Part shown: piece after piece, positions 9,714-41,483 of the stretch
Layout: every line of letters begins with the position of its first letter
Numbering within the stretch: position 1 is the stretch's first letter
Source: Alphaproteobacteria bacterium
Lineage (GTDB): Bacteria; Pseudomonadota; Alphaproteobacteria; Bin95
DNA: 64,000 nt
Direction of reading: 5' to 3'
Assembly: GCA_964291285.2 (NCBI GenBank)
Contig: OZ219786.1
Location: 320,001 to 384,000 of the forward strand
Translations under genes and position numbers: made by a program
Notes under the pieces: generated by a model
Database searches by the model: none
What the model saw: the letters and a program-made list of their open reading frames with translations, nothing else
What the model was told of the DNA's origin: nothing

Positions 9714-11339
9714 ATGGGCGCCTACGACCGGGGCCTGGACCGGCAGGCGGCGAATTACGAGCCGCTGACGCCGCTTTCCTTCCTGCAACGAACAGCCTGG
9801 ATTTTCCCGGACCATCCGTCCGTCGTGCATGGCGCGCGCCGGTTTACCTGGAGCGAAACCCGCCGGCGCTGCCACAGGCTGGCGGACGCGCTCGCCCGGC
9901 GCGGCATCGGCAAGGGCGACACCGTGGCCGTCATGGCCGCGAACACGCCGGAAATGCTGGAGTGCCATTTCGGCGTGCCGATGACGGGCGCCGTGCTGAA
10001 CACGCTGAACATCCGGCTGGATGCCGCGACGATCGCCTTCATGCTTGAGCATGGCGAGGCGAAGGCGGTATTCGTCGACCGCGAATTCTCCGATACCGTC
10101 CGCCAGGCGCTGGCCGGGCTCGGGCGGGATATCCTGACGGTCGATATCGACGATCCGGAATATGACGGGCCGGGAGACCGGATCGGCAGCCTCGACTACG
10201 AAGCGCTGCTGGCGGAGGGCGACCCGGACTGCGCCTATGCGCCGCCGGCGGACGAGTGGGACGCGATCTCGCTGAACTACACCTCGGGCACGACCGGCAA
10301 CCCCAAGGGCGTGGTCTACCACCATCGCGGCGCCTGGCTGAACGCGACCGGGAACACGATGGCGTGGCAGATGCAGCTCCATCCGGTCTATCTCTGGACG
10401 CTGCCGATGTTCCACTGCAACGGCTGGTGCTTCCCCTGGACGATCACCGCCCAGGCCGGCACGCATGTCTGCCTCCGGCGCGTGGAGGCAAAAGGAATTT
10501 TCGACGCGATTGCGACCGAGGGCGTGTCGCATTTCTGCGGCGCGCCGATCGTGCTCAACATGCTGCTGCACGCGCCGGAGGAGGAGCGCCGGAGCTTCGC
10601 CCGCCGCGTCCAGGTGATGACCGCGGCCGCCCCGCCGCCGCCCTCGACGCTGGAGGGCATGGAGGCGATGGGCTTCGACATCACCCACACCTACGGCCTG
10701 ACGGAATGCTACGGCCCGGCCGTGGTGTCGGCCTGGAACGGGGACTGGGACGCGCTGCCCGGCGCCGAACGCGCGGCGATGAAGGCGCGGCAGGGCGTCC
10801 GCTACCCGGTGCTCGAAGGCCTCACCGTCATGGACCCCGAAACGATGGCCGAGACGCCCCGCGACGGGGAGACCATCGGCGAGGTGATGATGCGCGGCAA
10901 TGTCGTGATGAAGGGCTATCTCAAGAACGGGGACGCCAGCGCGGAAGCGTTCGCCGGCGGCTGGTTCCACACCGGCGACCTCGGCGTCATGCACGAGGAC
11001 GGCTATATCGCGCTCAAGGACCGCTCCAAGGACATCATTATCTCGGGCGGGGAGAACATCTCGTCCGTCGAGGTGGAACAGGTCCTCTACCGGCACCCGG
11101 CGGTGCTCGAAGCCGCGGTCGTGGCGAAGCCGGACGAGAAATGGGGCGAGACCCCCTGCGCCTTCGTCGAGACGCTTTCCGGCGCAGAGCCGACGGAAGC
11201 GGAGGTCATCGCCTTCTGCCGGGACAATATGGCCCGTTTCAAGGCTCCGCGCCGCGTCGTCTTCGGCCCCCTGCCCAAGACCTCCACCGGCAAGGTGCAG
11301 AAATTCGTGCTCCGCGAGCGGGCCCGCGACCTGGAGTGA
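9714..11339 (+). CDS. Acyl-CoA synthetase (AMP-forming; short/medium-chain, DmdB-like group)
   Basis: YTSGTTGNPKG, LPMFHCNGW, YGLTE, HTGDLG, ISGGENISS, PKTSTGK. Confidence 0.9.
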   Translation: MGAYDRGLDRQAANYEPLTPLSFLQRTAWIFPDHPSVVHGARRFTWSETRRRCHRLADALARRGIGKGDTVAVMAANTPEMLECHFGVPMTGAVLNTLNIRLDAATIAFMLEHGEAKAVFVDREFSDTVRQALAGLGRDILTVDIDDPEYDGPGDRIGSLDYEALLAEGDPDCAYAPPADEWDAISLNYTSGTTGNPKGVVYHHRGAWLNATGNTMAWQMQLHPVYLWTLPMFHCNGWCFPWTITAQAGTHVCLRRVEAKGIFDAIATEGVSHFCGAPIVLNMLLHAPEEERRSFARRVQVMTAAAPPPPSTLEGMEAMGFDITHTYGLTECYGPAVVSAWNGDWDALPGAERAAMKARQGVRYPVLEGLTVMDPETMAETPRDGETIGEVMMRGNVVMKGYLKNGDASAEAFAGGWFHTGDLGVMHEDGYIALKDRSKDIIISGGENISSVEVEQVLYRHPAVLEAAVVAKPDEKWGETPCAFVETLSGAEPTEAEVIAFCRDNMARFKAPRRVVFGPLPKTSTGKVQKFVLRERARDLE

Positions 11340-11527
11340 GGGCCGGCGGGCCCCGAATGACACATCTGCGAGTTCGCCCGCGAACATTCTGGCGGCTGCC
11401 TGTTTCCTGCGCCGGCGCACCGGAGCAGTGTCCTTCCAGGCCGGGCCGATTCCGTCACCACCGCCCCGGCTTGCACGGCCGGGATTCATGAAATCCAAGA
11501 ATTTTCATTTTTTGTTCCTGATATCGC

Positions 11528-11557
11528 TTGACATCAGGGAAAATATGCTGATATAAG
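11528..11557 (+). promoter_or_regulatory. Sigma70-like promoter at the head of cassette copy A
   Basis: TTGACA 11528-11533 with TATAAG 11552-11557 in an AT-rich patch; CCTGAT/ATCAGG inverted repeat overlaps the -35. Confidence 0.5.
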
Positions 11558-11776
11558 GCCCGCAGAAGCGGTGTCCGAAGCCGTTTCTCCGGCGCCGCCA
11601 TGGCCGGGCGGCGCCATGTTCGAAAACCCCCTGAGAAACCGACGGGAGACGTGCGCCCGCCGCCTCGCGCGCGCAATCAGGCGTGCGAACCGCGCCGGCG
11701 CCGACGCGCGGGCCCGCCCGCCCGCGAAACGCGCGCGGCAAAGGGTCCGCCGCTCCCGGACCGGAAGGAGACATGG

Positions 11777-12379
11777 ATGACCGCAACCGACCCCCGTCCC
11801 GCACTGGCGGCGGCGCTCGCCGCAAAGCTCGCGCCCGCCGCCGAAGCCCTCGCCGCTGCCTATGCCGAAGACCTGAACCCGGAGCCCCCGCCCCCCGACG
11901 ACCGCGCCCGCGCCGAATGCCACCGCGCCGCACGCGCCCAGCTCGACCACCTGCACAAGCTCCTCGCCCTGCTCGACTGGGCCGGCGCCCACCTGCCCGA
12001 ACCGCCCGCCCCGGAACCCGAAGAAGAGCCGTGGGAGCCGCCGCCCCCGGAAGAGGACGATTACGACGGCAGCGAGGACGAGTTCCACTTCCACAGCGAG
12101 GTCTATGTCGGCAGCCAGGAGACCCCTGAGTTCCGCGCCTGGTATGCCGAGCAGGAGCGCCGCTTCGGACCGCTCGTCCCCGACGAGGCCGACTATGACG
12201 GCAGCGAGGACGAATACCACCACGGGCGGCGCAAATATGTCGGCAAGCTCAGGACGCCCGAGTTCTACGCATGGCTCGAACGGCTGGACCGCCGCGAAGC
12301 CGAAGAGGAACGCCAGGAGGAGGAAGCCGAAGCCCGCGCCGCACTGGCACGCACAGGCGGACACGGCGGCGGACCATGA
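11777..12379 (+). CDS. Hypothetical acidic protein with internal repeat (cassette A cargo)
   Basis: GGAAGGAG RBS; two DYDGSEDE..YVG...TPEF.AW units; stop codon falls in the first CATGACA box. Confidence 0.6.
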   Translation: MTATDPRPALAAALAAKLAPAAEALAAAYAEDLNPEPPPPDDRARAECHRAARAQLDHLHKLLALLDWAGAHLPEPPAPEPEEEPWEPPPPEEDDYDGSEDEFHFHSEVYVGSQETPEFRAWYAEQERRFGPLVPDEADYDGSEDEYHHGRRKYVGKLRTPEFYAWLERLDRREAEEERQEEEAEARAALARTGGHGGGP

Positions 12380-12464
12380 CAAAACATGACATTTCCCCAG
12401 CGCCGCATGACAAAACATGACACTTCATGACACTCCGCTGGAGCGGGCCGCACACCCGGCGGCG

Positions 12465-13280
12465 TCATTCCCGGCGTTCGCCCCGCAACGCCCGGGCGAG
12501 AGCGCAAAAATCCTCGACCGTCAGTTCCTCGGGGCGGAGCGTGTCGTCCAGGCCCGCGCGGGCGGGGAGACCGCCGAGCGTGCGGCGGAGCATCTTTCGC
12601 CGGCCGCCGAAAGCGCGCGCCGTAACCTCCTCCAGGTCGGACACCACGGCCGGCGCCGGCGACGGACGCGGCATCAGCGAGACCACGCTGGAGGCCACCT
12701 TCGGCGGCGGCGCGAAGGCGCCGGGCGGCAGGTCGAAACAGCGGCGGACCTCGGCGCGCCACTGGGCAAGGACGGACAGCCGTCCCCGGGCCTTGCCGCC
12801 CGGCGGCGCCAGCAGGCGGTTCGCGACCTCCTTCTGGAACATGAGGGTCATGGACTCGATCCCGGCCGGCCGGCGCAGCCAGCCGACCAGCAGCGGTGTC
12901 GCAATGTTGTATGGCAGATTGGCTACGATCTTGATCGGCGCGGGGCCGAGCGCGGTCACGTCCACCTCAAGCGCGTCGGCTGCCAGCACCCGGAGCCGTC
13001 CCTCGCCGGCCGCCGCCAGTTCCGCCAGCGCCTCCACGCAGCGGGCGTCGCGCTCGACCGCAACGATCCGCTCGGCGCCGGCCTCCAGCAGCGCGCGCGT
13101 CAGACCGCCGGGCCCGGGTCCGATCTCGACCGCCGTCCGGCCCGCCAACGGACCCGCCGCGCGGGCGATCCGGTCAGCGATGCCGGGATCGAGCAGGAAA
13201 TGCTGGCCGAGCGCGCGGCGGGCGCCCAGTCTGTACCGGCGGATCAGGTCCTGCGGGCGCGGCAGCTTGCCGTCAGACAC
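12465..13280 (-). CDS. rsmA: 16S rRNA m6,6A dimethyltransferase
   Basis: LGQHFL, EIGPGPG, ANLPYNI, MFQKEVA, F.PPPKV.S. Confidence 0.96.
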   Translation of the reverse strand: MSDGKLPRPQDLIRRYRLGARRALGQHFLLDPGIADRIARAAGPLAGRTAVEIGPGPGGLTRALLEAGAERIVAVERDARCVEALAELAAAGEGRLRVLAADALEVDVTALGPAPIKIVANLPYNIATPLLVGWLRRPAGIESMTLMFQKEVANRLLAPPGGKARGRLSVLAQWRAEVRRCFDLPPGAFAPPPKVASSVVSLMPRPSPAPAVVSDLEEVTARAFGGRRKMLRRTLGGLPARAGLDDTLRPEELTVEDFCALARALRGERRE

Positions 13281-14247
13281 CTTGCCGGCGCTCTGCCATC
13301 TCGTGGGCCAGTTTCAGGGCCGCAATCAGGCTGTCGGGCCGCGCGCGGCCGGTGCCGGCGATGTCGAGCGCGGTTCCGTGGTCGGGCGAGGTCCGCACGA
13401 TCGGCAGACCGAGCGTGACGTTCACCGCGTTATGGAAATCCAGCATCTTCACCGGAATCAGCGCCTGGTCGTGATAGGGGCAAAGCGCGGCGTCGTAGCG
13501 GGCCCGCGCTTCGGCATGGAAGAGCGTGTCTGCCGAGAGCGGCCCCCGAATGTCGATTCCTTCCCGGCGGAGCCTGGCAGCCGCCGGAGCCATGATTGCG
13601 TCCTCTTCCGGCCCCAGCGCCCCGCCCTCCCCGGCATGGGGGTTCAACCCCGCCAGCGCAAGGCGCGGCGCAGCGATGCCGAAATCGGCCCGCAGGCCAT
13701 GCGCGACGATGCGCGCGGTATCTTCGACAAGGACTGCGGTCAGCCGGCCCGCAACCTCCGAAAGCGGAATATGCACGGTCATCGGAACCGTTCGGAGGTC
13801 CTTGCCGACCAGCATCATGACCGGACGCCGGGCGCCGGTAAGCTCGGCCAGGAACTCGGTGTGGCCCGGATGGGCGAAGCCGGCGCTTATCAGGCTTTCC
13901 TTCTGGATCGGAAGCGTGACAACAGCTGAAGCCTCGCCTGCGCGAACCGCCGCCACCGCCCGCTCGATGGAAGCGACAACCGCGGGCGCATGCGCGGGAT
14001 CGGCCGTTCCCGGCTTGACCGGCGCCGTCAGCGGCAGGGGCAGCACCGGCAATGCATCGGGAAATATCCGCGCGGCCTCGCAGGGGCGCCTTATCTCGCG
14101 GACGGGAGCGGCGGGATCTATCCGGGCCAGCCAGCCGGCGTCGCCTGCAAGAAAGAAGGCCGGAACACCGGGTGCAGTCCAGGCCTTGAGCGCAAGCTCT
14201 CCGCCGACGCCGCCCGGTTCGCCCATGGTCAGCGCGAGCGGCTGCAA
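13273..14247 (-). CDS. pdxA: 4-hydroxythreonine-4-phosphate dehydrogenase
   Basis: TMGEPGGVG, PGHTEFLA, LNPHAGE, YHDQALIP, RTSPDHGTA. Confidence 0.96.
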   Translation of the reverse strand: MQPLALTMGEPGGVGGELALKAWTAPGVPAFFLAGDAGWLARIDPAAPVREIRRPCEAARIFPDALPVLPLPLTAPVKPGTADPAHAPAVVASIERAVAAVRAGEASAVVTLPIQKESLISAGFAHPGHTEFLAELTGARRPVMMLVGKDLRTVPMTVHIPLSEVAGRLTAVLVEDTARIVAHGLRADFGIAAPRLALAGLNPHAGEGGALGPEEDAIMAPAAARLRREGIDIRGPLSADTLFHAEARARYDAALCPYHDQALIPVKMLDFHNAVNVTLGLPIVRTSPDHGTALDIAGTGRARPDSLIAALKLAHEMAERRQGV

Positions 14248-14251
14248 GGGG

Positions 14252-15202
14252 TCATCTCCGGCGGAATATCAATGCGGACCGGCGCAGGTCCTGCAAATAG
14301 CGGTCAGCCCGCCGGCTGATGCGCTCCACGCGCAATCGCCGCTCAATGCCGGTCCGTTCCTCGGCGTCTTCCGCCGCCGTGCTCTCGACGACGCTCCGCT
14401 CGCGAAGCAGGAGGATGTAGAACCCGTCTTCAAGGCGAACCGGAGCAGAAACGCCGTTGGGAGTCAGGGCGTCGAGCGCGGCTTCCAGACGGGCGTCGAG
14501 CTGCCCGGCCCGAACACGCCCGAGGTCGCCGCCGATAGCCGCGGAAGAGGATTGCGAGAACTGTCTGGCCAGCCCGTCAAAGGAGGCGCCGGCGCGCAAT
14601 TGCGCCACGATCCCCTCCGCGGCGGCGCGGACCTCGCTTTCCCTTGCCGGGTCGTCCAGTTCGAGGAAGATTTCCGAAGCGACATACTCCGTGGATCCGG
14701 CGGCGGCGCGCCGTTCCGCAAGGCGCGCGTCAATCTCGCCCGCTCCGACCTCGATGCGCGGCGCGATCCGCCGGGCCACCACCGTGTTCCAGGCGGCCTC
14801 GACCCGCAGATGCTCCTTCAGCGCCTCGATATCGAGTCTGTTGTTGCGGAAATACTGGACCAGCCCTCCGGGCGGAAGATTGTTACGCTTCTCGATGTTC
14901 TCAATTTGCCGTTCGATCTCGCGTTCGCTCACGCGGACTCCGAGCCTCCCTGCTTCCTGGCTTTGCAGGCGTTCATCCATAAGGGTCCGCAGAATCTGGG
15001 ATCCGAGCCGGCGGCGGATCTCCGGAGTGTCCTGGACATTGGAGGAGGACAACGCGATGCCCAGCCGGGCAATCACGTCGTATCGGGTGATGATATCGTC
15101 GTTGACGACCGCCACAATCCGGCCCGCCTGCTGGGCCTGGGCAACACTGCAGGCAGCCAGACCGCAGAACAAGAAAACAAACCGCAGGCACACGCTACGC
15201 AT
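14252..15202 (-). CDS. surA: SurA-family chaperone/parvulin PPIase
   Basis: Signal peptide, IVAVVNDDIIT, FDGLARQFSQ...GGDLG; upstream of pdxA. Confidence 0.88.
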   Translation of the reverse strand: MRSVCLRFVFLFCGLAACSVAQAQQAGRIVAVVNDDIITRYDVIARLGIALSSSNVQDTPEIRRRLGSQILRTLMDERLQSQEAGRLGVRVSEREIERQIENIEKRNNLPPGGLVQYFRNNRLDIEALKEHLRVEAAWNTVVARRIAPRIEVGAGEIDARLAERRAAAGSTEYVASEIFLELDDPARESEVRAAAEGIVAQLRAGASFDGLARQFSQSSSAAIGGDLGRVRAGQLDARLEAALDALTPNGVSAPVRLEDGFYILLLRERSVVESTAAEDAEERTGIERRLRVERISRRADRYLQDLRRSALIFRRR

Positions 15203-15243
15203 CTTCGCCGTTTCCGTCTGTCTCGGCAGCCGCAGTTATGCCG

Positions 15244-16335
15244 TTAGCCGTCCTCCAGATGCAAGAGCGCAGCGCAGCCCAGCATCACCGCCGCCGCCGC
15301 CGGCGTCCAGGCCGCCAGCACGACCGGCGCCCGCCCCGACAGGCCAAGCGCGAAAACGACATCCGACAGGATAAAAAGCAGGAAACCGGCCCCGACGCCG
15401 GCGGAAAGCATTACTGCCGTCCCGCCGCGCCGCCGCGACCGGATCGAGACTGCCGCCCCGATCAGGAGCATCGCAGCAGTCAGGACGACGGACGCAAGCA
15501 GGGCATGAAATCGAAGCCGATGCTTTCGCGCCTGAAAACCCGCCTCCTCCAGTGCCTCGATATATGCCGGCAATCTCCAGACCGACATGGTCGCCGGGCC
15601 CGTCAGGCCGTCTTCAATATGCTCCCAGCTAAGCGTTGTGGGAATCCGCTCTGCAACCCGGCGGACAGGCGCACCGCGGGAGCCGGCATCCCAGACGCCT
15701 TCCAGGAGCCAGTATCCATCGCCCAATTCCGCCGAACTGGCATCCAGGCGGTTCCGAAAGTGGCGCAGTCCCTCGAAACGATAGAGCACGACATCATGCA
15801 GAATGCGTTCCTTGTCGACCCGGTCTGCAAACAGAACAGTCAGGTTCCCGTCGTCGACTTCCCGCAGCCACAGTCCGGATTGGGAAATCGACGACACGGG
15901 AGCGGCGCTGCCGAAATACCGCGCCTCCAACCGTTCGAAGCGCCCCTGGGCGGCCGCTGCAAGCGGGCCATAGAACACCACCTTTCCCGCGCCCAGCACG
16001 AATGCAACCGCCAGTGCCGGCAACAACACCTTCCAGACCGAAACGCCGGCCCCGTGTGCAGCCGTCAATTCGTTGTGCCGTCCAAGACGGTCGAAAGCGA
16101 ACAGGCTGCCGAAGAGCACTGCGAACGGCAGCAGGAGTTCCAGCATTGCCGGTAGTTCCAGCGCCGCCATCTCCAGCACGATTGCAAACGTCGCTTCGTC
16201 TCTGGACCCGGACCGGCGCAGCAGCTCGATCATGCCGACCAACCAGACGAGAGCAGCCAATACGACGAGCACGATGCAGACCCATACGAAAAACCGTCGG
16301 GCCAGATAACGGGAGAGCACTCCGAATTGCTCCAT
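15244..16335 (-). CDS. lptG: LptF/LptG family permease (LptG)
   Basis: LSRYL, ELTAAHGAGVSVW, GLWLRE, C-terminal LAAWTP..LLHLEDG. Confidence 0.88.
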   Translation of the reverse strand: MEQFGVLSRYLARRFFVWVCIVLVVLAALVWLVGMIELLRRSGSRDEATFAIVLEMAALELPAMLELLLPFAVLFGSLFAFDRLGRHNELTAAHGAGVSVWKVLLPALAVAFVLGAGKVVFYGPLAAAAQGRFERLEARYFGSAAPVSSISQSGLWLREVDDGNLTVLFADRVDKERILHDVVLYRFEGLRHFRNRLDASSAELGDGYWLLEGVWDAGSRGAPVRRVAERIPTTLSWEHIEDGLTGPATMSVWRLPAYIEALEEAGFQARKHRLRFHALLASVVLTAAMLLIGAAVSIRSRRRGGTAVMLSAGVGAGFLLFILSDVVFALGLSGRAPVVLAAWTPAAAAVMLGCAALLHLEDG

Positions 16336-16352
16336 CCTCGCCACGCCTCTTT

Positions 16353-17447
16353 TCAGACGGCCAGCGGACGGCGGCGGCCGCCCATTGCCAGGAGCGCGAA
16401 CCCGATCAGGATAGGCGCCGCCCCGACAGCATATTGAAGGCCCGCAAGCGCCGGCAGCTTCGCCACTGCTGCCTTCACCGCGAAAGCTCCTACCAGAAGG
16501 CCGAACGCAAGCGCTCCCGCCAGGGCCGGCCTGAAGGACTGGCCGCGGCGATTTACGCCCCCCAGAAGCAGGCATGCAAGTGCCACGGCAGTCACGGCAC
16601 CGGGCATAAGGCCGCTGGCGAGCCGAAAATGCGCCTCTGCCTTGTGCTTCGCGACATTTGCTTGTCCGACCTCTTCGACGGAAGGATTCAGAAGTTCGCC
16701 CAACGTCCGCTCTCGCCGGCTGCGCGACCTCTTCGGAATGGCCGGCAAATTCAGTTCAATCGTGTTGCGATCGAAATATACGAGGGTCAAGCGGCCGGAT
16801 TTCCGGTCAATTTCCTGCCGGCTTCCATTGAATGCGACCAGCGTTGGCACGCCGTCGGCTATTGTCGCGGTCCCCTTCTCGGCCATGTAGGTTATGCGCC
16901 GGTCGGGATTCCTGTCATCCTGCAGCAGGATTCCGGAATACTCGCTCGCGCCGACACCGTCCTGGACAAACAACGTCATGTCCCGGCCGATCTGTCGGAA
17001 GACGCCCGGCCGGACGAACAGCACGGAAAAACGGTCTTTCAGGATCGACTGGAGGTCTCGAAGCTCCCTCTCCGAGGCAGGCGCCAATACGAGCGCATTC
17101 CAGGCGACGGCTCCCATGACCACCAGTCCCAGCAGCAACGCCGGCGCCGCCAGGCGCAGGTCGCTGACGCCGGCCGCACGCATCACGATCACCTCGCTGT
17201 CGGAAGCCATCCGCACATAAACCAGCAGGACGGAAATCAGCAGCGCCAAAGGCAGACCCACACTCGCAAGATACGGCAGCGCCAACATTACGAGCGCCGC
17301 GAACATTTCGATGGCAATGCCGCGCTCCACGATGTCATCGACGAAACGCAGCGCTGTCGCCAGCAGCAGCAGAGGGGCCAGAACGCCGGCCGCGGCGCCG
17401 AGCGCGACAAGCAAACGCCGCAGGACATAAAGATCGGTCTGGCGCAT
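16353..17447 (-). CDS. lptF: LptF/LptG family permease (LptF)
   Basis: DLYVLR, DSEVIVMRAAGVS, PGVF; divergent from pepA. Confidence 0.87.
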   Translation of the reverse strand: MRQTDLYVLRRLLVALGAAAGVLAPLLLLATALRFVDDIVERGIAIEMFAALVMLALPYLASVGLPLALLISVLLVYVRMASDSEVIVMRAAGVSDLRLAAPALLLGLVVMGAVAWNALVLAPASERELRDLQSILKDRFSVLFVRPGVFRQIGRDMTLFVQDGVGASEYSGILLQDDRNPDRRITYMAEKGTATIADGVPTLVAFNGSRQEIDRKSGRLTLVYFDRNTIELNLPAIPKRSRSRRERTLGELLNPSVEEVGQANVAKHKAEAHFRLASGLMPGAVTAVALACLLLGGVNRRGQSFRPALAGALAFGLLVGAFAVKAAVAKLPALAGLQYAVGAAPILIGFALLAMGGRRRPLAV

Positions 17448-17501
17448 CGCGTGCCTGTATGCTGCTTTACCGAAAATCAGACAAGCCGCATGAGGGTTAC
17501 G

Positions 17502-18959
17502 ATGAAGGTTTCTTTCGCCGCTCCCGCCCTGCCCCGCTCGGGAGCCCTGGTGCTCACAGTCGCAAAGGGAGGGGCTCTGGAGGGCCTGGCGGCCGAGGCG
17601 GACGCCGCTGCAACCGGCGCCCTTTCGCAAGCGATGGCGGCTTCCCGTTTCGACGGCGAAGCGAAGGCCACGATCGAAGTGATGGCGCCTTCCGGCCTGG
17701 ACGCTGAGCGGGTGCTGATCGTCGGTGTCGGAGAAGAACTGGATGCCCGGCTCGCTGAAGATGTGGGCGGCACCGTCTATTCCGCGCTTGCCAAGTCGGG
17801 TTCCAATTCGGCGACACTGGTCTGGCCGCAGGCTGGCTCAGCTGCCGCTGCCGGCCTCGGCGCAGCCCTTGCAGCCTACCGGTTCGACAAGTACCGCACG
17901 AAACTGAAGGACAAGGACAAGCCGGCGCTCGCGGAACTTGTGGTCGCGGCGCCGGATACCGACGATGCACGCCAGTCCTACGAGGAGGACGGCGCCAGAA
18001 TTGTCGAGGCCGTCGCCTTCGCCCGCGACTTCGTATCGGAGCCGGGCAATGTCCTTTATCCGGAGAGCTATGCGGACGGGCTTCGCGAACTGGAGGGGCT
18101 CGGCGTTTCCGTGGAGGTATTCGACCAGGCGGCGCTTGAAGAACTGAAAATGGCCACACTGCTGGGCGTGGCGCAGGGAAGCGCGCGCGAGGCCCGGGTG
18201 GTCGTCATGCGCTGGCAGGGCGGGGAGGGGCCGCCGATCGCTCTCGTCGGCAAGGGCGTCACATTCGATACCGGCGGCATCTCGATCAAGCCCAGCGGCG
18301 GCATGGAAGAGATGAAATGGGACATGGGGGGATCCGCCGCCGTGGCCGGAGCCATGAAGGCCATTGCCGGGCGCAAGGCGGCCGCGAATGTCGTCGGAAT
18401 CGTCGGCCTGGTGGAAAACATGCCTTCGGCGACGGCCCAGCGGCCCGGCGATGTCGTGACCAGCTACTCCGGACAGACCGTCGAGGTTATCAACACCGAC
18501 GCTGAGGGCCGCCTCGTCCTGGCGGACCTGCTGGCCTATGTCATCGAGCGATATGAACCGCACGCCGTGGTCGATCTGGCGACGCTCACCGGCGCCATGG
18601 TGATGGCGCTTGCCCACGAATATGCCGGCATGTTCTCCAACGACGACGCGCTGGCAGAATCACTGATGTCGGCAGGCGCGGCCGTGGACGAGAAATTGTG
18701 GCGGTTTCCGCTCCACGAGGCCTACGACAAAATGCTCGAGTCCCACATCGCCGACATGAAGAACATCGGTCCGCGCGAGGCAGGCGCGATATCCGCGGCG
18801 CAGTTCCTGAAGCGCTTCGTCGGCGATACGCCCTGGGCTCACCTGGACATCGCCGGCACGGCCTGGACCGACAAGGCACGGCCGACTGTGCCAAAGGGAG
18901 CGACGGGCTACGGCGTGCGCCTGCTCGACAGGCTGGTCCGGGATGTCTGCGAAAGCTGA
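17502..18959 (+). CDS. pepA: Leucyl aminopeptidase
   Basis: VGKGVTFDTGG, MKWDMGG, NTDAEGRL, ATLTGA, HLDIAG. Confidence 0.96.
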   Translation: MKVSFAAPALPRSGALVLTVAKGGALEGLAAEADAAATGALSQAMAASRFDGEAKATIEVMAPSGLDAERVLIVGVGEELDARLAEDVGGTVYSALAKSGSNSATLVWPQAGSAAAAGLGAALAAYRFDKYRTKLKDKDKPALAELVVAAPDTDDARQSYEEDGARIVEAVAFARDFVSEPGNVLYPESYADGLRELEGLGVSVEVFDQAALEELKMATLLGVAQGSAREARVVVMRWQGGEGPPIALVGKGVTFDTGGISIKPSGGMEEMKWDMGGSAAVAGAMKAIAGRKAAANVVGIVGLVENMPSATAQRPGDVVTSYSGQTVEVINTDAEGRLVLADLLAYVIERYEPHAVVDLATLTGAMVMALAHEYAGMFSNDDALAESLMSAGAAVDEKLWRFPLHEAYDKMLESHIADMKNIGPREAGAISAAQFLKRFVGDTPWAHLDIAGTAWTDKARPTVPKGATGYGVRLLDRLVRDVCES

Positions 18960-19395
18960 CCCGCCGGTCTTCTACGACCTGGATGGCGCTCCGCTGGACC
19001 TCGGCCTGGGCCGGCTGCTGGAAGCAGCGCTGGCCGAGGGCCGGCGGGTCTGCGTCCGCCTCGGCCAGGACGAACGGGTGGCGGCACTCGACCAGGGGTT
19101 GTGGACCTACCGCAACGACAGCTTCCTGCCGCATGGATGCGAGGGCGACCCCGCCGAGCATCCGGTATGGCTGACGGCGGTGCCCGGAAATCCGAATGCG
19201 GCCGACCTGCTCGTCCTAGTGGACGATGCGCCGCTGGACGGACGCGAAGGATTCGCCGGCACCGCCTATCTGTTCGACCGGCGCGACCCCGCAATGCGCG
19301 ACATTGCCCGCGACCGGTTTGCCGCATTTCGAGACGAGGGAAGCCGGCCCGCATATCTGCGGTTCGGGCCGCAGGGCTGGCCGCAGTCCGAATAG
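18943..19395 (+). CDS. holC: DNA polymerase III chi subunit
   Basis: LDQGLWTY...SFLPHG, PVWLT..GNPN; follows pepA. Confidence 0.9.
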
Positions 19396-19462
19396 CGCCG
19401 TTGTGCGGGCAGGGCGGCATGGCTATAACGCCGCGCCCGCCGTGCTGGGGAGGAGACCTGAA

Positions 19463-19885
19463 GTGGCGACCGAACGCACATTGTCTATCGTGAAGCCCGA
19501 CGCGACCCGACGCCAACTGACGGGAGAGATCATCGCCCGGCTGGAGAAGGCCGGGCTCAGGGTCGTGGCCCAGAAGCGCATCCGGCTGACGCGGGAGCAG
19601 GCGGAAGGCTTCTACGCCGAGCACAGCGAGCGGCCCTTTTTCGACGATCTCTGCACCTTCATGACCTCGGGCCCCGTCGTCGTGCAGGTGCTCGAATGCG
19701 AGGGCGCCATCGAACTCAATCGGGAGATCATGGGCGTCACCAACCCGGCCAATGCGGCCGAGGGCACGATCCGCAAGGACTATGGCGAGTCGATCGAGGC
19801 GAATTCCGTCCACGGCTCCGACTCTCCCGAAAGCGCGGCGCGCGAGATCGCCTATTTCTTCAGCGCCTGCGAAATCGTCGGCTAA
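19463..19885 (+). CDS. ndk: Nucleoside diphosphate kinase
   Basis: [27 protein letters not shown]; AGGAG RBS, GTG start. Confidence 0.97.
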
Positions 19886-20634
19886 ACCCGGTCCGGGCTG
19901 TCGACGCGAGCTACAGTCAACGCATCGACCCGGGCCGCGCCGGCGCGCTTGAGGGTCCGCGCGCAGGCCTCAAGCGTTGCCCCGGTCGTCAACACATCGT
20001 CCACGACAACTATTCGCGCGCCGCGGACCCGGTCCCGCCAGGCCGGCGCGACGCGGAATGCGCCGGCGACATTGCGTCCCCGCTCATTGCGCCCGAGTTC
20101 CGTCTGCGGGCGCGTGCGCCTTACGCGCCGCAAGAGGTCGGGAGCGAAGGCCGCCTCGCCTCCGGCAGCGAGCCGTCCCGCCAGCAGCGCGGCCTGGTTG
20201 TAGCGCCGCCGGTATAGCCGCATCCAGTGAAGCGGCACCGGGGCGACCCAATCCGCGTCCTTCAGCAGCACAGCGCCGGCTTCCCGCGCCCATGCTGACA
20301 GCAGCGGCGCCAGGCCGGTTTCGTCTCGGAACTTGAAGCGCTGGACAAGGTTTCTTGCGTTACCGCCGTAAATCAGCGCGCTTCTTGCCCGATCATAGGC
20401 AGGGTGTTTCGCCATGCACGCGCCGCAAAGCGAGCCGGCCTCCGCCTGGAAGGCGAAGGGCCGCCCGCAACTGTCGCACAACGGCTCGGCAATGAACTCG
20501 AGGTCCGACCAGCAGGCCCCGCAGACAGTCGCCGGGTCCGCTACCGGGCCCCGGCAAGAAGCGCAGCGCGGCGGCAGCGCGAGGTCCAGCAACCGCCGTG
20601 CAAACGCCGCAGCCTTCGTTTCGGGAAACACCAT
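19882..20634 (-). CDS. comF: ComF family protein (zinc ribbon + PRTase)
   Basis: Four CxxC pairs, [22 protein letters not shown]. Confidence 0.92.
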
Positions 20635-20643
20635 CGGCCGGGA

Positions 20644-22176
20644 TCAGGCGGGGCGGCTCCAGAACCGCGTCGTGCCGTCGCGGTCGAGCTGTTCCACGAG
20701 GCCGGTCTCCCAGTCGAGATAAGCCTGCATGTTCTCCTCGACGGTCCCGCCCTGCTCATAGGGCTTCAGCCACACATCGTCGGCCGTATCCGCCATGTGC
20801 CAGGCGCCGCTTTCCAGCGGCCCGGTCCATGCCTCCGTGCCGCCCTCCAGCACGGAGACAGGCCGGTCGAAATCGCCGGCGGCCAGATGCGCCAGCCGCC
20901 CGTCCGGAGAGGTGAAGACATAGCGTTCCGCGTCCGGCAGGCGCGCCGAGGCAAGCCGCGAGCGGATCGCGAACCAGGCGCCCGGTATATGGCCTTCGGC
21001 ATAGCTGCGGCTGTCGGCGAAATCGACCACGACCGCGCCTTCGACGGCCTCCGGGCCGACCGTCGGCACATCGGCCAGACCCGGAATGTCGGCATCGACA
21101 GGTCCGGCCTCCAGCGGGCCGCCCTCCAGCACGCCTTCCAGCACGGCTGCATCCCAGTTCATCTGCCGGAGCCAGTGCGCGGTCATGGCGGCGCGAACGC
21201 CGTTGTCGTCCACAAGGAAGATGCGCGCGCCGCGCACCGCCGCATAGCGGTCGGTCGCCTGCACCAGCTGTCCGCCGGGCGCCGAACGCGACCCCTTCAG
21301 ATGCCCCGCCTCGAATTCGTGCGGATGGCGGACATCGAACACATAGGTGGTCCGGCCGGGCGCAGGCGGGATTTCGCGCACGACCGGCACCTCGAAACGC
21401 TCCGCAACCGCCGCGGCGCAGGCGCGCGCCGCTTCCAGCCCGGCCGCGCTCGGCTCCGGCGCCGGGCGCTCGTTGCCCCGCTCCAGTTCGAGGCCGGCGA
21501 GATGCCAGCCCATCGTGCCGTTTCGCAACGCCGCCACCCGGTTCGGGATCCCCGCATTTATCAGGGACTGCGCCCCGATGATGCTGCGCGTCCGCCCCGC
21601 GCAATTGACGATCACCGTGGTATCCGGAGACGGCGCGAGGTCGTGGACGCGATAGACCAGTTCCGCTCCGGGACAGCAGGTCCCGGTCGGAATGTTCATG
21701 TTGCGGAATTCGTCCATCGGCCGGCTGTCCAGCACGACCACCGGGTCCGGGCCGTCCAGCATGTCGCTGAGTTCCTCGGCCGACACGGACGGGGTGTCGT
21801 AGGCGTGCTCGACATATTCGCCGAAGGCCTTGCTCGGCACGTTGAAGCCGGAGAACACCTCGTAGCCCGCCTGCCGCCAGGCCTCGACGCCGTTCGCAAA
21901 CAGGGCGATGTCGGTGTAGCCGAGCTCATGGAGCCGCGCCGCGCCGCGTTCCGCAAGGCCGCCGCCATTGTCGGTCGCGACGATTTTCGTCGCCGCACGC
22001 GGCACGAGGTCGCGGATAGACAGTTCCAGCCGGGAGAGCGGGATATTGCAGGCGTGGAGCAGATGCGCGGGCGCGAACGAGCCCTCCTCGCGGAAGTCGA
22101 TGATGGCGAGTTCGTCCTCTCCGTCGAGCGCCTTTCGCAATTCCTCGGCCGAGATCGGGCTATAGTTCTCGCTCAT
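20644..22176 (-). CDS. Multi-domain rhodanese-like sulfurtransferase
   Basis: Repeated rhodanese units: IDFRE..F..AH, LDSRP..EF, VNCAGRTRS, FDVRH..EF..GH, GHIPGA. Confidence 0.85.
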   Translation of the reverse strand: MSENYSPISAEELRKALDGEDELAIIDFREEGSFAPAHLLHACNIPLSRLELSIRDLVPRAATKIVATDNGGGLAERGAARLHELGYTDIALFANGVEAWRQAGYEVFSGFNVPSKAFGEYVEHAYDTPSVSAEELSDMLDGPDPVVVLDSRPMDEFRNMNIPTGTCCPGAELVYRVHDLAPSPDTTVIVNCAGRTRSIIGAQSLINAGIPNRVAALRNGTMGWHLAGLELERGNERPAPEPSAAGLEAARACAAAVAERFEVPVVREIPPAPGRTTYVFDVRHPHEFEAGHLKGSRSAPGGQLVQATDRYAAVRGARIFLVDDNGVRAAMTAHWLRQMNWDAAVLEGVLEGGPLEAGPVDADIPGLADVPTVGPEAVEGAVVVDFADSRSYAEGHIPGAWFAIRSRLASARLPDAERYVFTSPDGRLAHLAAGDFDRPVSVLEGGTEAWTGPLESGAWHMADTADDVWLKPYEQGGTVEENMQAYLDWETGLVEQLDRDGTTRFWSRPA

Positions 22177-22206
22177 GGGGTTTCCTTCCGGCGCAGCGGG
22201 GCGTCG

Positions 22207-22980
22207 ATGATACCGCAACTCTTCGACCGGGGCGCCCTTCGCCGCCACCGCGACCGCGCCGCCGCTGCACCTCCCGGCGCGGATTTCCTGTTTCGCGAGG
22301 TGGCGGAGCGGCTGGCGGACCGCCTCGACGATGTGACCGTCAGCTTCCCGCTCGCGCTCGATATCGGCGCGCGCGACGGCGTGCTGGCGTGCGCGCTGCA
22401 CGGGCGGGGGGGCATCGAGACCCTCATCCGCCTGGAGGCCTCGGAGGCGCTTTGCCGCGCCGGGGGCGGCGTCGGCGCCGTCGGCGAGGAGGACAATCTG
22501 CCCTTCGCGGCCGGGAGCTTCCATCTGATTGCAAGCAATCTTGCCCTGCACTGGACCCAGGACCTTCCGGGCGCGCTCGCCCAGATAAAGCGCGCGCTCA
22601 AGCCCGGCGGCCTCTTCCTCGCAAGCCTTTTCGGCGGCGAAACGCTGACCGAGCTGCGCCAGGGCCTGCTCGCCGCCGATGCGGCCGCGTCCGGCGGCGC
22701 AGCGCCCCGGGTTTCCCCCTTCGCGGACCTGCGCGACGCCGCCGGGCTGCTGCAGCGCGCCGGATTTGAGTTGCCGGTCGCCGATCTGGACACCATCCGG
22801 GTCACTTACGAATCCCCCTTCAAGCTGATGGCCGACCTTCGCGCCATGGGCGAGACCAATGCGCTGGCGGCGCGGCCCCGCCATTTCGCGCGCCGCGCGC
22901 TGTTCGCCGAACTCGCCTCGCAATACACCGCCCGGCAGGCAGCGACGTTCCAGGTCATCTATCTCTCCGGCTGGGCCTGA
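22207..22980 (+). CDS. SAM-dependent methyltransferase (BioC/NDUFAF5-like)
   Basis: LFDR, FL..EVAERL.DRL, LDIGA, NLALHW, PRVSPF, GLLQRAGF.LPVAD. Confidence 0.88.
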   Translation: MIPQLFDRGALRRHRDRAAAAPPGADFLFREVAERLADRLDDVTVSFPLALDIGARDGVLACALHGRGGIETLIRLEASEALCRAGGGVGAVGEEDNLPFAAGSFHLIASNLALHWTQDLPGALAQIKRALKPGGLFLASLFGGETLTELRQGLLAADAAASGGAAPRVSPFADLRDAAGLLQRAGFELPVADLDTIRVTYESPFKLMADLRAMGETNALAARPRHFARRALFAELASQYTARQAATFQVIYLSGWA

Positions 22981-23999
22981 TCCGCGACGCCGCACCGCAG
23001 GAGGCGGGTTCCTGCGACCATCGCACGCAGCTTTTCCCTCGCCAGCCAGCGCGGCAGCGCCGAGAAGCCGCAATCGGCCGTGACCCAGAGGCGGTCCCGC
23101 GGCACCACCTCCAGCACCCTCTCCAGCCGCGCGGCCACTTCCCCGGGCGTTTCAATGTGGAACGACTTCACATCGACCACGCCGGCCGCGATCCGGAAGC
23201 GCTCGGCCAAAGCCGGCAATGTGTCGAGGTCCGCCATTTCCCGGTTTGCGAACTCCAGCACCAGCATCGAGCAGTCGAGCATGGCCATGCCCGGGAGCAG
23301 GCGGGTGAAGCCGCGCGGCGAATAGGGGCGGGACGCATTGTTGCCGAAGCAGATATGAACCGCGACGCGGTCCGCATGGCCGGCGATGGCGGTGTTGATC
23401 GCCTCGGCGCAGGCCCTGCTGTCCATGCCGTGCGAGAGGTCGGTGAAGCCCGGCTCGTCGATCTGGATGAGTTCGGCGTCTTCGCCGGCGAGCCTGTCGA
23501 GTTCGTCCCTCACAATGCCGGCGATGTCGTCGAGCAGCGCCGCCCTGTCGCCGCCATAGGGGCCTTCGGGCTCGATCTTGGGCATGAAGGTCAGAGGGCC
23601 GGGAAACGCAACCTTGAGCCGGCTGCCCGGCGCCAGCTCCCTGAGGCGGCGGAACTCGGCCGCGATGCCGAGCCCGCCGGGCGCCGCCACCCGTTCCCTG
23701 GCGGTGAAATGGGGGGCCCGGTCATAACCGGGCACGCCGAGGCGCCGGCCTGCCGGAATCCGCTCGATACCGGTCAGCCGGTCGTACATCTCGTAAACGA
23801 ATCGGCTCCGGCGGAGTTCGCCGTCGGAGACGATGTCCACGCCCGCTTCGATCTGGTCGGCAATCGCGATGCGGGTCGCGTCGTCGAAGGCTTCCTCGAC
23901 ATCCTCGGCCCCGGTCCGGCCCGCGCGCATGGCCTCCCGGAACAGGAACAGCCAGCCGGGCGCCGCATAGGACCCCACGCCCATTGTCGGCAAATCCAT
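22959..23999 (-). CDS. Short (single-barrel) cobalamin-independent methionine synthase family protein
   Basis: VGSY, SDGELRR, IQIDEP, Zn ligands HICFGN and ADCG; ~346 aa. Confidence 0.85.
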   Translation of the reverse strand: MDLPTMGVGSYAAPGWLFLFREAMRAGRTGAEDVEEAFDDATRIAIADQIEAGVDIVSDGELRRSRFVYEMYDRLTGIERIPAGRRLGVPGYDRAPHFTARERVAAPGGLGIAAEFRRLRELAPGSRLKVAFPGPLTFMPKIEPEGPYGGDRAALLDDIAGIVRDELDRLAGEDAELIQIDEPGFTDLSHGMDSRACAEAINTAIAGHADRVAVHICFGNNASRPYSPRGFTRLLPGMAMLDCSMLVLEFANREMADLDTLPALAERFRIAAGVVDVKSFHIETPGEVAARLERVLEVVPRDRLWVTADCGFSALPRWLAREKLRAMVAGTRLLRCGVADQAQPER

Positions 24000-24071
24000 G
24001 CCGCTCCTCCTTCTCGACCGCCGCACCGGGATAGTAACGGCTTCTCCGGCGCCGGGAAGCTTTCCGACGGT

Positions 24072-24430
24072 TGCGGGAGTGTCATGAAAATGTCATGTTT
24101 TGTCATGAGGCCCGCCGAAAATGTCATGTTTTGTCATGGTGCGCCGGCCTTCGTTCGAAACGCCGGCATCCGTATCCTGATCCCGCATACGGTACCTCCA
24201 TCGTGTTCCGTTCTCCCCGCCGCCGGCCTGCCCGGCAGGAGGGACCCTTTTCCGCGCGTATCGCGGGCGCGCGCGGGCGGGCGTCGGCGCCGGCGCGGTT
24301 CGCGCGCCTGATTGCGCCTGCGCGCGCGAGGCCCATGCGCAGGGCGCACGTCTCCCGTCCGTTTCTCAGGGGTCTTTTCGCGCCGGCGCGAAGCGGCCCT
24401 GCAGATGCCGCTTCCGTTGCCCCATATTAG
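24072..24430 (-). repeat. Dispersed cassette copy B (its promoter continues at 26449-26500 beyond IS1634)
   Basis: TGTCATG at 24080, 24091, 24101, 24122, 24132; 24241-24420 homologous to the reverse complement of the copy A leader. Confidence 0.85.
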
Positions 24431-26444
24431 CCCGACTTCCGCAACTCGGCTTGAGAATCGACTGATTTGACGGTTTTCCGGCGCGAGAAGTGTCGGATTT
24501 CGGTGCAGTACCTCTCGGGACCGGCTTGTAGTGCCGACCTACCCCCTTGATCGGGCTGGCGAAGATCCGGACGCTGCGCTGATGTTCGTGCGCTGCAAGA
24601 GACGCTTCAAGGACGGCAAGGAGCACCGCTACTGGAGCGTTGTGGAGAACGTCCGGGTCCACGGCGGTCGGGTTGTTCAGCGTCAGGTGCTCTATCTCGG
24701 GGAGATCAACGACAGCCAGCGAGCGGCGTGGTGCCGCTCGATCGAGGTGGTGGAGGGCAAGTCGCGATCACGGCAGATGGCGCTGTTTCCCGAGGACCGG
24801 GAGGCGCCGGCGCTGACTTGCGAAGTGGTGAAGATCGACCTCTCGCAGGTGGCGCTTCACGACCCGCGCCAGTGGGGGGCGTGCTGGCTGGCGCTGTCCT
24901 TGTGGGACCGCCTGGACCTGGACCGCTTCTGGGAAGAGCGGCTGCCGGCGAGCCGGCAAGGCACGCGGTGGCTGGACATCCTGAAGATCCAGGTCTGCTA
25001 CCGGCTGATCGACCCGGGCAGCGAGTGGCGCCTTCACCGTCACTGGTATGAGCACAGCGCGCTTCGCGATCTTCTGGGTGGCGAGCGGGCGATCGCCGAC
25101 GACACACTCTATCGCTGTCTCGACAAGCTGCTGGCGCACAAGCAGGGCTTCTTCTCGTTTCTGCGCGACCGCTGGGCGACGCTGTTCGAGGCGCGCTTCG
25201 ACGTGCTGCTCTACGACCTGACCTCGACCTACTTCGAGAGCGATCCGCCGTTCGATGACAAGCGCCGCTTCGGCTACAGCCGGGACAAGCGGCCCGACTG
25301 CGTGCAGGTGGTGATCGCCCTGATCGTTACGCCGCAGGGCTTTCCGCTGGCCTATGAGGTGATGCCGGGCAACACCTCCGACGACACCACGCTGGCGGCG
25401 TTCCTCAAGAAGATCGAGGATCAGTATGGCCGCTCCGAGCGGGTGTGGATCATGGACCGCGGCATCCCCACCGAGGAGACGCTGGCCGCGATGCGCGAGG
25501 GCGAGGCGCCGGTGCGCTACCTGGTGGGCACGCCCAAGGGCCGGCTGACGCGGCTCGAGAAGGTGTTCCTGGGCCTGCCCTGGCAGGAGGTGCGCCAGTC
25601 CGTGACTGTCAAGCTTCTGGTCGAGGATGGCGAGCTCTACGTCCTGGTGCGCAGCGAGGGGCGGCAGGTGAAGGAACGCGGCATGCGCCGGCGCCGGCTG
25701 AAGAGGCTGTGGCGTCGATTGGCCGAGTTGCAAGGGCAGTCGAACAGCCGGGATCAGTTGTTGCTCAAGCTCGGCGCCGCCAGGAAGGAGGCCGGCCGGG
25801 CCTGGAGCCTGGTCGACATCACCGTGCCCGGGACCGACAGCGAACTCGCCGCCAACGGCTTCTCATTCCGCCTGCAGCGCGACCGGCTGCGCCAGGTCCG
25901 CCGCCGCGAGGGCCGTTACCTGCTGCGATCCAACATGGTCGCCGAAGACCCCGCCACGCTGTGGCATCTGTACATGCAGCTCGTCGAGATCGAGCAGGCG
26001 TTCAAGGAACTCAAGCACGACCTCGCGATCCGCCCCATCTTCCATCAGCGCCAAGAGCGCATCGAGGCGCATATCTTCGTCTCGTTCATCGCCTACTGCC
26101 TGCTGGTGACCCTGAAGAACCTCGCCCGGCCGCGCGCCCCGGGCCTCACCCCACGCGCCATCCTTGAGGCCTTCGCCACCATCCAGATGGTGGACGTCCA
26201 TCTGCCAACCACCGACGGCCGGCACCTCGTCCTGCCGCGCCACACCCGGCCGAACAAGGAGCACGAGCTACTGCTGCAACAGCTCGGCATGACCTGGCCG
26301 CAGCAACCCGCACCCCGGATCTCCGCCTGACGGCACACGGCGCCGCCTCTCCGTTCGCCGCCTTGTAGTGCCGACCCTCGGGGAGACGATCAAGGCTATT
26401 CAATGAGTTAGCATCCTCATGACCCCCGAGTTGCGGAAGTCGGG
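24431..26444 (+). mobile_element. Complete IS1634-family insertion sequence
   Basis: Perfect 19-bp terminal IR CCCGACTTCCGCAACTCGG (24431-24449 / 26426-26444); TTAG duplication at 24427-24430 and 26445-26448. Confidence 0.92.
24582..26330 (+). CDS. IS1634-family DDE transposase
   Basis: YWSVVEN, YDLTSTYFE, GYSRDKRPD, IMDRG, IEQAFKELK, IRPIFHQ..RIEAH. Confidence 0.93.
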   Translation: MFVRCKRRFKDGKEHRYWSVVENVRVHGGRVVQRQVLYLGEINDSQRAAWCRSIEVVEGKSRSRQMALFPEDREAPALTCEVVKIDLSQVALHDPRQWGACWLALSLWDRLDLDRFWEERLPASRQGTRWLDILKIQVCYRLIDPGSEWRLHRHWYEHSALRDLLGGERAIADDTLYRCLDKLLAHKQGFFSFLRDRWATLFEARFDVLLYDLTSTYFESDPPFDDKRRFGYSRDKRPDCVQVVIALIVTPQGFPLAYEVMPGNTSDDTTLAAFLKKIEDQYGRSERVWIMDRGIPTEETLAAMREGEAPVRYLVGTPKGRLTRLEKVFLGLPWQEVRQSVTVKLLVEDGELYVLVRSEGRQVKERGMRRRRLKRLWRRLAELQGQSNSRDQLLLKLGAARKEAGRAWSLVDITVPGTDSELAANGFSFRLQRDRLRQVRRREGRYLLRSNMVAEDPATLWHLYMQLVEIEQAFKELKHDLAIRPIFHQRQERIEAHIFVSFIAYCLLVTLKNLARPRAPGLTPRAILEAFATIQMVDVHLPTTDGRHLVLPRHTRPNKEHELLLQQLGMTWPQQPAPRISA

Positions 26445-26448
26445 TTAG

Positions 26449-28778
<2,330 letters not shown>

Positions 28779-40108: not shown

Positions 40109-40109
40109 A

Positions 40110-40206
40110 CGCTCCCTCCGCCGGTACTAACCGGATCAGGTTCCTGGGGTCGTCCCGATTGCGGGACCTCTCAGCCGCGGGATTGCGGCTCCCCCGAGTG
40201 GAACGG
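40110..40206 (-). ncRNA. TPP riboswitch
   Basis: Minus strand reads GGGGGAGCC...GGCTGAGAGG...ACCTGATCCGGTTAGTACCGGCGGAGGGAGC right before the transporter start. Confidence 0.93.

Positions 40207-41408: not shown

Positions 41409-41483
<75 letters not shown>

Follow-up and report, generated by a model that had tools for sequence, protein, structure and literature searches.

Phased direct repeats are bound by ring-forming small terminases and by filament-forming excisionases, and non-autonomous derivatives of insertion sequences (ISs) are represented by miniature inverted-repeat transposable elements (MITEs) and mobile insertion cassettes. For the phages SPP1 and SF6, the pac site is described as sets of direct repeats that span promoters and the start of the small-terminase gene terS, and neighbouring helix-turn-helix (HTH) motifs of the TerS ring are placed about one helical turn apart (PMC4737164). 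Here, we analyzed a window of 64,000 nucleotides (nt), i.e., the whole stretch at positions 320,001 to 384,000 of contig OZ219786.1 from an Alphaproteobacteria bacterium, together with the genome that holds it (G000; 6.1 Mb in 5 contigs, 68% G+C). The window contains two copies of a cassette in which a predicted housekeeping-type promoter, a GC-rich leader and a ribosome-binding site (RBS) precede a single open reading frame (ORF), and an array of CATGACA boxes follows. These copies belong to a large family of inserted elements dispersed over the genome, some of which encode a protein with a small-terminase-like N-terminus.

Among described systems, the phage small terminase with its pac site (SPP1/SF6 G1P, Terminase_2) resembles the cassettes in its N-terminal four-helix HTH domain followed by long helices, and also in helically phased direct repeats that lie beside or overlap the gene and its promoter (PMC4737164). 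In contrast to SPP1/SF6, however, the TerS-like gene of the cassettes is not located beside a large-terminase or head gene, and each genome has 10 full-length copies and about 90 derivatives. Its product has a long acidic C-terminal half instead of a beta-barrel and a TerL-binding tail, the array is placed at the 3' end of the gene, and cassettes with an unrelated protein have this array too. Several features are MITE-like, such as the high copy number, intergenic position, deletion derivatives keeping both ends, presence/absence variation and an outward promoter of their own, but the cassettes have neither terminal inverted repeats nor clean target duplications, and even the 'master' copies encode no transposase. 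Similar to integron cassettes, one ORF is followed by a conserved repeat-bearing site and some promoter-less units are arranged in tandem; unlike them, the units are dispersed, have their own promoter and carry a direct-repeat array rather than a palindromic attC, and no linked integrase was seen (IntI was not searched for). The expected binding of a small HTH-type protein to several direct repeats that are spaced by about a helical turn and close a mobile element also recalls lambda Xis and P2 Cox, but no sequence or fold match to those families was obtained and no partner integrase is known. The TAACTGA repeats of Beggiatoaceae likewise form many sets of 7-nt direct repeats in the intergenic DNA of one lineage, but motif and lineage differ, and the accessible part of that source mentions no linked promoter, leader or ORF (PMC4679880). 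Full-text literature searches turned up no description of such an element, none of the papers listed for the CATGACA repeat contained that heptamer, and the cassette family matches no mobile element described to our knowledge.

Size, anatomy and distribution of the cassette family

An earlier note on the window, made from its letters alone, had pointed to two look-alike loci on opposite strands with a fixed order of parts. Both are present as described, but "two copies" greatly understated the family: iterated nhmmer with the promoter-leader of copy 1 as query produced 107 leader matches in G000, which also has 122 arrays with at least two boxes (101 with at least three). A same-strand array is located within 1.5 kb of 83 leader matches. 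In the window itself, CATGACA occurs 12 times compared with 4.09 +/- 2.13 times in shuffled sequences (a count of 12 was reached in none of 100 shuffles), and all but two of these sites, 10 in number, fall in the two arrays.

The units are 0.35-1.4 kb long and consist, in this order, of an AT-rich end, the promoter, the GC-rich leader of about 200 nt, the RBS, the ORF and the CATGACA array. Similarity among paralogues begins at ..GCGACAATTTGTTCATGAAAT.. and ends just past the last box. The left end carries one degenerate box (CATGAAA or GCGACAA) and the right end 2-8 boxes, all in direct orientation and differing in number among copies. An array usually ends in the triplet CATGACA-aaa-CATGACA-ttc-CATGACA, often with a doublet 21-43 nt upstream. 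When 323 box-to-box spacings in G000 were measured, 252 were exactly 10 nt, 22 were 21 nt and 15 were 33 nt. This spacing is helical phasing and not reading-frame phasing, the 21- and 33-nt spacings keeping the helical phase. With a triplet in the 10-nt register, TGA and ATG are present in all three frames, and 54 of the 83 longest ORFs run into the boxes and terminate in them.

Leader DNA was detected in 14 of the 16 other species of the genus and in none of 24 genomes of other genera, and plasmid DNA contained no match to the cassette. Within the genus, G001 and G003 are free of cassettes, and G013 yielded one weak match. Of 71 cassettes with a downstream gene, 38 share its strand, and judged from these crude gene calls, which cover 57%, the cassettes stand in no fixed relation to neighbouring genes. 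The description of the loci as a dispersed and unnamed cassette without recombinase agrees with our searches, in which neither cassette protein matched a recombinase family and no Rfam or plasmid match was obtained.

Copy 1 lies on the + strand of the window. Its AT-rich left end (11490-11527) contains a degenerate box (TTCATGAAAT) and TTTGTTCC, a motif repeated in other copies; the identity of a 97.7%-identical paralogue (C1:734761-735628 of G000) to copy 1 begins near 11491. The promoter at 11527-11557 (CTTGACA at 11527-11533, 18 nt, TG-a-TATAAG at 11549-11557) is conserved across 82 full-length copies, the general pattern being CTTGAC or TTGCAT, about 16 nt, and TG-n-TAtaat. A promoter-like site had been proposed before; it stands as a conserved feature, whereas a simple sigma-70 consensus scanner, run over 11300-12700, detected neither a promoter nor an intrinsic terminator, and the promoter is therefore inferred from conservation across copies. 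The leader begins with hairpin P1 (GAAGCGG / CCGTTTC, 11565-11587) and continues with a GC-rich core (11588-11764) that includes the most conserved columns of the family and the motifs GACGGGAGACGTGCGCCC (11641-11658), GCGCAATCAGGCGTGCGAACCGCGCCGGCGCCGACGC (11671-11707) and AAAGGGTCC (11740-11748). It is followed by the RBS AAGGAG (11765-11770) and by a 200-amino-acid (aa) ORF (11777-12379) of a family here called class b, whose stop codon TGA lies inside the first box. Five exact CATGACA boxes start at 12375, 12385, 12406, 12416 and 12426 (12375-12432; spacings 10, 21, 10 and 10), and the similarity of paralogues stops in the right end CTCCGCTGGAGCGGGCCGC (12433-12452).

Copy 2 is on the - strand and is split by an IS. 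Its five boxes (24138-24080) and right end occupy 24072-24138, and a remnant ORF of 31 aa (24093-24188) ends in the boxes (..MTKHDIFGGPHDKT). The leader, which runs up to 24426, and the -10 half of the promoter (CTAATAT) together occupy 24189-24430 and match leader-model positions 34-250; the leaders of copies 1 and 2 align with long identical blocks. The remaining part, 26445-26506, holds the -35 half (TTGCAT, 26469-26464) and the AT-rich left end TTTGTTCATATTTTTTGAAATAATTC (about 26506-26449 for both), which is of the same type as in the TerS-like copies. At the orthologous place, genome G012 has a full-length cassette with an intact TerS-like ORF of 325 aa (L028). The earlier label "non-autonomous" suits copy 2; copy 1 encodes an intact class b family member.

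Insertion polymorphism and cassette ends

A search for empty sites, proposed in the earlier note, was successful: orthologous sites are empty in some species, and the units are therefore insertions. The site of copy 1 is intergenic, between two convergent genes. It is empty in G003, G013 and G015, where 55, 23 and 62 nt, respectively, separate the matches to the flanks, and filled in G006, G007, G008, G010, G011, G012 and G016. Six of the filled alleles were aligned, and only that of G016 is of the same subfamily as copy 1, G006, G007, G008, G010 and G011 having other members of the family. This site could have had an old occupancy with turnover, or it could have been used repeatedly. A second site, that of a TerS-like cassette at C2:1363.6k of G000, is empty in G002, G005, G009 and G016; the insert there also holds a unit resembling repetitive extragenic palindromic (REP) sequences and an IS5-like element. 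In the opposite direction, two sites are filled in G011 and G012 and empty in G000, again with extra repeats. For locus L102, the left flank had no counterpart in five relatives, and no empty-site allele of copy 1 was seen in short-read contigs of four sequencing runs.

The ends of the cassettes carry direct, not inverted, box-like motifs. Two candidate features of the ends and flanks were rejected. IS3-type inverted repeats as cassette ends were ruled out by the count of left ends given below, and the flank motif GGCCGGGCCGATTC, common to copy 1 and locus L060, adjoins a cassette in only 1 of its 18 genome matches. In addition, a REP-like repeat family of about 130 nt (..GTCGCCCCCGCGAAGGCGGGGG..CCCTGACTCTCG..) is often found beside cassettes, for example at L103:2680-2806 and in the flanks of L036 and L060.

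Proteins encoded by the cassettes

Ten cassettes contain a TerS-like ORF of 329-347 aa. The protein matches Pfam Terminase_2 (PF03592) with 45.2 bits against a cut-off of 26.1 (E 1.8e-11), residues 11-71 covering profile positions 2-62 of 141, and it also matches PHROG small-terminase families. A profile of 24 TerS-like sequences matches the solved SF6 TerS chains 2cmp, 4zc3 and 3zqp (E 2e-6 to 1.5e-5). In the AlphaFold2 (AF2) model, an HTH with a predicted local distance difference test (pLDDT) score of about 90 is followed by a helical hairpin (52-106), a helical pair (146-198) and a disordered acidic tail. The top Foldseek match of this model was the DNA-binding domain of SF6 TerS (4zc3), with TM 0.85 on the target, a root-mean-square deviation (rmsd) of 1.6 Å and 41% identity but an E-value of only 0.084; the full-length SF6 chain aligned poorly (TM 0.38, rmsd 15). 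Moreover, 38 phage records matched the protein; among the 12 listed, all 11 with an annotation are small terminases, and none of the matches covers 80% of the protein, some extending to residue 113-122. By these comparisons, the first ~70 residues of the 329-aa protein are a small-terminase HTH domain, in which residues S40-G45 are invariant across 24 aligned sequences. All 12 Terminase_2 matches in G000 are inside cassettes, and the TerS-like gene was found in 12 of the 16 other species of the genus and in none of 20 genomes of two sister genera. In small terminases of this type, a central oligomerisation domain forms a ring of 8-11 subunits; for the cassette protein, a predicted tetramer of residues 1-112 scored 0.10 against a mark of 0.42, which counts neither for nor against oligomerization.

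The class b family of copy 1 has 160 homologues of about 190-215 aa, with no Pfam domain among the 120 listed, and both G008 and G009 have an intact gene. As modelled with AF2 (mean pLDDT 80), the protein has a helical hairpin and two beta-hairpin/helix units. Foldseek against PDB found nothing at E<=0.001; a wide VIA-align search matched only residues 1-83, to helical hairpins of a generic kind (best Z 7.1), and the beta-hairpin/helix units had no fold match, though the searches scarcely probed those units. Class b and the TerS-like protein have no significant similarity to each other (best E 0.48).

Purifying selection acts on the cassette proteins: the ratio of nonsynonymous to synonymous substitution rates (dN/dS) for TerS-like codons 1-110 is 0.22 for 44 pairs from G000 and 0.19 for 1,164 pairs across genomes, and that of class b is 0.43 (25 pairs). 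By N-terminal motif, the 83 cassettes comprise 15 with TerS-like, 20 with class b, 11 with MPKT.. (a short peptide) and 5 with MEER.. starts, and 32 others. Ten of the 15 TerS-like starts lead into full-length ORFs and about 7 of the 20 class b starts into ORFs of at least 150 aa; many of the remaining ORFs can be recognised as forms of the two long genes that have been truncated or frameshifted. What had looked like swappable cargo therefore consists of two conserved protein families and truncated or frameshifted remnants. Internal deletions or frameshifts mark most copies, among them copy 2, and these derivatives keep only the promoter-leader end and the array. In public records, the proteins are named 'terminase small subunit, partial' or 'hypothetical protein'.

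Proposed explanation

We give about even chances to the explanation that the units are selfish DNA cassettes whose own DNA-binding protein recognises the phased array and which are moved by an enzyme acting in trans. The DNA-binding protein of the element would assemble cooperatively on the phased boxes, and the resulting nucleoprotein complex would mark the end of the element for an enzyme that cuts and joins DNA; this enzyme is not encoded by the element and would be a function of the host, a phage or another mobile element. The three boxes in 10-nt register would stop any cargo frame inside the array. Retention of both ends in the derivatives would be expected if these ends were required in cis. 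TerS-like relatives with 42-59% identity occur in other lineages of metagenome-assembled genomes; they have an untranslated region (UTR) of about 40 nt without the GC-rich leader, and 7 of the 9 distant relatives inspected still end in nnTGACr boxes at 10-nt spacing. Because these relatives keep the boxes, the HTH residues are invariant and SPP1/SF6 provides a precedent, we propose that the array is where the cassette protein assembles.

Several results weigh against this explanation. Neither the 329-aa nor the 200-aa protein contains a transposase, recombinase or nuclease domain (Pfam, PHROGs), and no invariant Tyr, Asp or His pattern was found outside the HTH. Terminal inverted repeats were not detected, since 0 of 92 left ends had an inverted right-end 13-mer within 400 nt. 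There was also no clean target duplication, every filled allele that was compared also holding REP-like units, ISs or other repeats, and no head-to-tail cassette pair (array then promoter within 400 nt) exists in G000. The isolated SF6 TerS domain is reported to bind its own repeats weakly and non-specifically (PMC4737164). In addition, leaders and an intact class b gene are present in G008, where no TerS-like gene was found at E<=1e-15, and G009 has only TerS-like fragments; cassettes can therefore be kept without the TerS-like protein.

If the selfish-cassette explanation is true, about 1% of these genomes would be an element type missed by current annotation, and the cassettes would provide a naturally occurring example of how a DNA-recognition protein of phages found a use outside a packaging module, as well as a compact model for the recognition of helically phased heptamers by a protein. 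The puzzle is how they spread to about 100 sites without transposase, inverted repeats or target duplications.

Alternative explanations

The TerS homology raises the question of whether the units are dispersed pac-like modules, in which the TerS-like protein is a working small terminase and the array a pac-type site recruiting a phage large terminase, so that host DNA at about 100 sites is packaged and transduced, or phage packaging is diverted as a defence or satellite strategy. Phased direct repeats beside or overlapping terS are the classic pac layout (PMC4737164), and every lineage seen has the array at the gene's 3' end. G000 also has one prophage-like island with a large-terminase gene (L114, C2:85300-96900; terL at 89785-91362, phrog_9, E 1e-48), in which no recognisable terS adjoins terL. 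This island further encodes an integrase, weak portal, protease and capsid matches, and a primase-like gene that is interrupted by an IS; the island terL has no cassette beside it. However, none of the 12 TerS-like genes adjoins terL, this terL type is present in only 4 of the 17 genomes of the genus (28-46% identity), and no conserved packaging partner travels with the cassettes. Pac-like modules would also leave the spread to new chromosomal sites unexplained, class b cassettes have the same array without a TerS-like gene, and the TerS resemblance is limited to residues 1-120, the C-terminal 200 residues being acidic and disordered in the model. A gene transfer agent (GTA) was considered as well and is disfavoured, because Pfam Terminase_6N, TerL_ATPase, Terminase_3 and GpA_ATPase had no match in G000 (all four also missed the island terL) and the single terL type is sporadic in the genus. 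Since no resident and conserved packaging machine accompanies the cassettes, we lowered the pac and GTA readings and consider dispersed pac-like modules unlikely, though infecting phages could be used. We are similarly doubtful that the roughly 100 'TerS plus pac-like site' modules represent a new class of selfish element built around a domesticated small-terminase-type protein and a phased array, whether as phage/GTA-type entry points (a transduction or packaging-decoy network in a symbiont lineage) or as units moved by a packaging-type cut at the array. An integron-like system appears quite improbable. In it, the array would be a site analogous to attC, an unlinked site-specific recombinase would insert and excise circular cassettes, and the cassette proteins would be directionality or architectural factors. 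One degenerate left box, 2-8 right boxes in direct orientation and the variable box number between copies would fit this scheme, as would promoter-less modules of about 200 nt (TCCACGGTGGAGAGGACGG ... AAGGAGGCTGCAATGCC..), each with a 12-codon ORF and its own box triplet, which are found in tandem (one to three times) behind cassettes at C1:1183780-1185200, C3:319100-319800 and C4:739330-740060 of G000. On the other hand, complete cassettes form no tandem pairs, the arrays are direct repeats and not attC-like imperfect palindromes, no circular junction was observed, and no integrase was seen beside the inspected cassettes (no IntI or phyletic recombinase search was made).

Finally, the leader is the best-conserved stretch of the family, and the units might constitute a cis-regulatory or non-coding RNA family, with a functional leader and with boxes acting at the RNA level through protein binding at the 3' end or a three-frame stop/restart; the copies would then be paralogous genes that share a regulatory shell and not mobile DNA. 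In favor of this, hairpin P1 is paired in 87-100% of weighted sequences and covaries (score 0.82, 118 distinct leaders), further GC-rich hairpins with different sequences recur by eye, and the box triplet offers TGA and ATG in three frames, where most of the longest ORFs end. However, the same 118 leaders had no covariation outside P1, the core being near-invariant, GCGC-rich and open to many alternative pairings, and the RNAalifold consensus on a MAFFT alignment was weak and patchy. All but one of the six leader frames are open in this GC-rich DNA, which says nothing for or against coding. At gathering scores, Rfam found nothing in the cassettes across the whole window, and a search of 11450-12500 at E<=10 returned five chance-level rows (best E 1.7); the match to a known Rfam family that the earlier note had asked about was thus not obtained. 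The long GC-rich leader is specific to the genus, and distant TerS-like relatives, with their UTR of about 40 nt, lack it and keep the phased boxes, so the earlier suggestion of a structured non-coding RNA family has become weak. Moreover, the 21- and 33-nt spacings keep the helical phase and not the frame, insertion is evident from empty orthologous sites, and flanking genes have no preferred orientation in the crude gene calls. We regard an RNA family as very improbable. The only Rfam matches in the window are elsewhere: a thiamine pyrophosphate (TPP) riboswitch at 40096-40205 (- strand, 69.3 bits) and a tRNA at 41409-41480 (+ strand, 68.9 bits).

Insertion sequences in cassettes and other repeats

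The IS that splits the promoter of copy 2 is 2,014 bp long (24431-26444, + strand), has 19-bp inverted repeats and lies in the -10 region, with a target duplication CTAA at 24427-24430 and 26445-26448. It carries a DDE transposase of 599 aa (24531-26330; Pfam DDE_Tnp_1, E 1.9e-13). Its read depth is about 50-150 times that of the flanks, indicating a very high copy number in the read sets. We placed short-read contigs of the four runs on window positions 10000-28000, where contigs break at repeats. Contigs of three runs (X1-X3) join 24426 to 26445 and skip 2,018 nt, with depths of 356, 123 and 348 and shorter sides of 52, 25 and 22 letters, respectively. This join fits an IS-free allele of copy 2, and the near-identical paralogous promoter-leader at C3:1722962 fits equally well. 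Another contig join, from 11794 to 12403, fits deleted paralogues.

Cassettes are preferred landing pads for at least two further IS families. An IS of about 1.1 kb is inserted at the identical leader point (..GACGGGAGAG \| ..GTGCGCC) in four cassettes of G000 (C1:640191-641281, C1:858924-860015, C3:1276529-1277602 and C2:876851-877943). The equivalent point in the window is between 11649 and 11650, within the first leader motif GACGGGAGACGTGCGCCC. Its transposase begins with MERIFVGIDVAKDRLDV, and from a reading of this protein we take the IS to be a member of the IS110 family. One IS end is complementary to the target motif, and by sequence this looks like guided targeting of the conserved leader. 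A 1,250-bp IS with ends TGGAGTGGGCCCC, presumably of the IS3 family as guessed from the first ORF residues, has one end abutting a CATGACA array in 8 of 8 complete paired copies, either 5-6 nt past the last box or 3 nt ahead of the first one (e.g., C2:1256607-1257856, C2:1315728-1316977, C1:733441-734690 and C3:1315019-1316268 of G000). A solo 13-mer similar to this IS end (TGGAG(T/C)GGGCC-like) follows 22 of the 101 arrays within 30 nt.

The units, with a strong-looking promoter and no intrinsic terminator, shape the genome. Contigs break at cassettes, which probably add to the fragmentation of short-read assemblies of this lineage. Small-share sequencing runs were labelled sponge, coral and marine metagenome, and from these labels we assign no habitat. 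In addition, a segment of more than 11 kb is present in three copies with 99.5-99.8% identity in G000 (C5:9300-21400 (L100), C2:~3-15 kb and C3:~1906-1918 kb), encoding a DnaA_N-domain protein, a NikA-like protein, a DDE transposase and a large serine recombinase. Beside the DnaA_N gene, there are three iteron-like repeats of 18-19 bp (GGTGACGGTCATGACACC) that contain the CATGACA heptamer.

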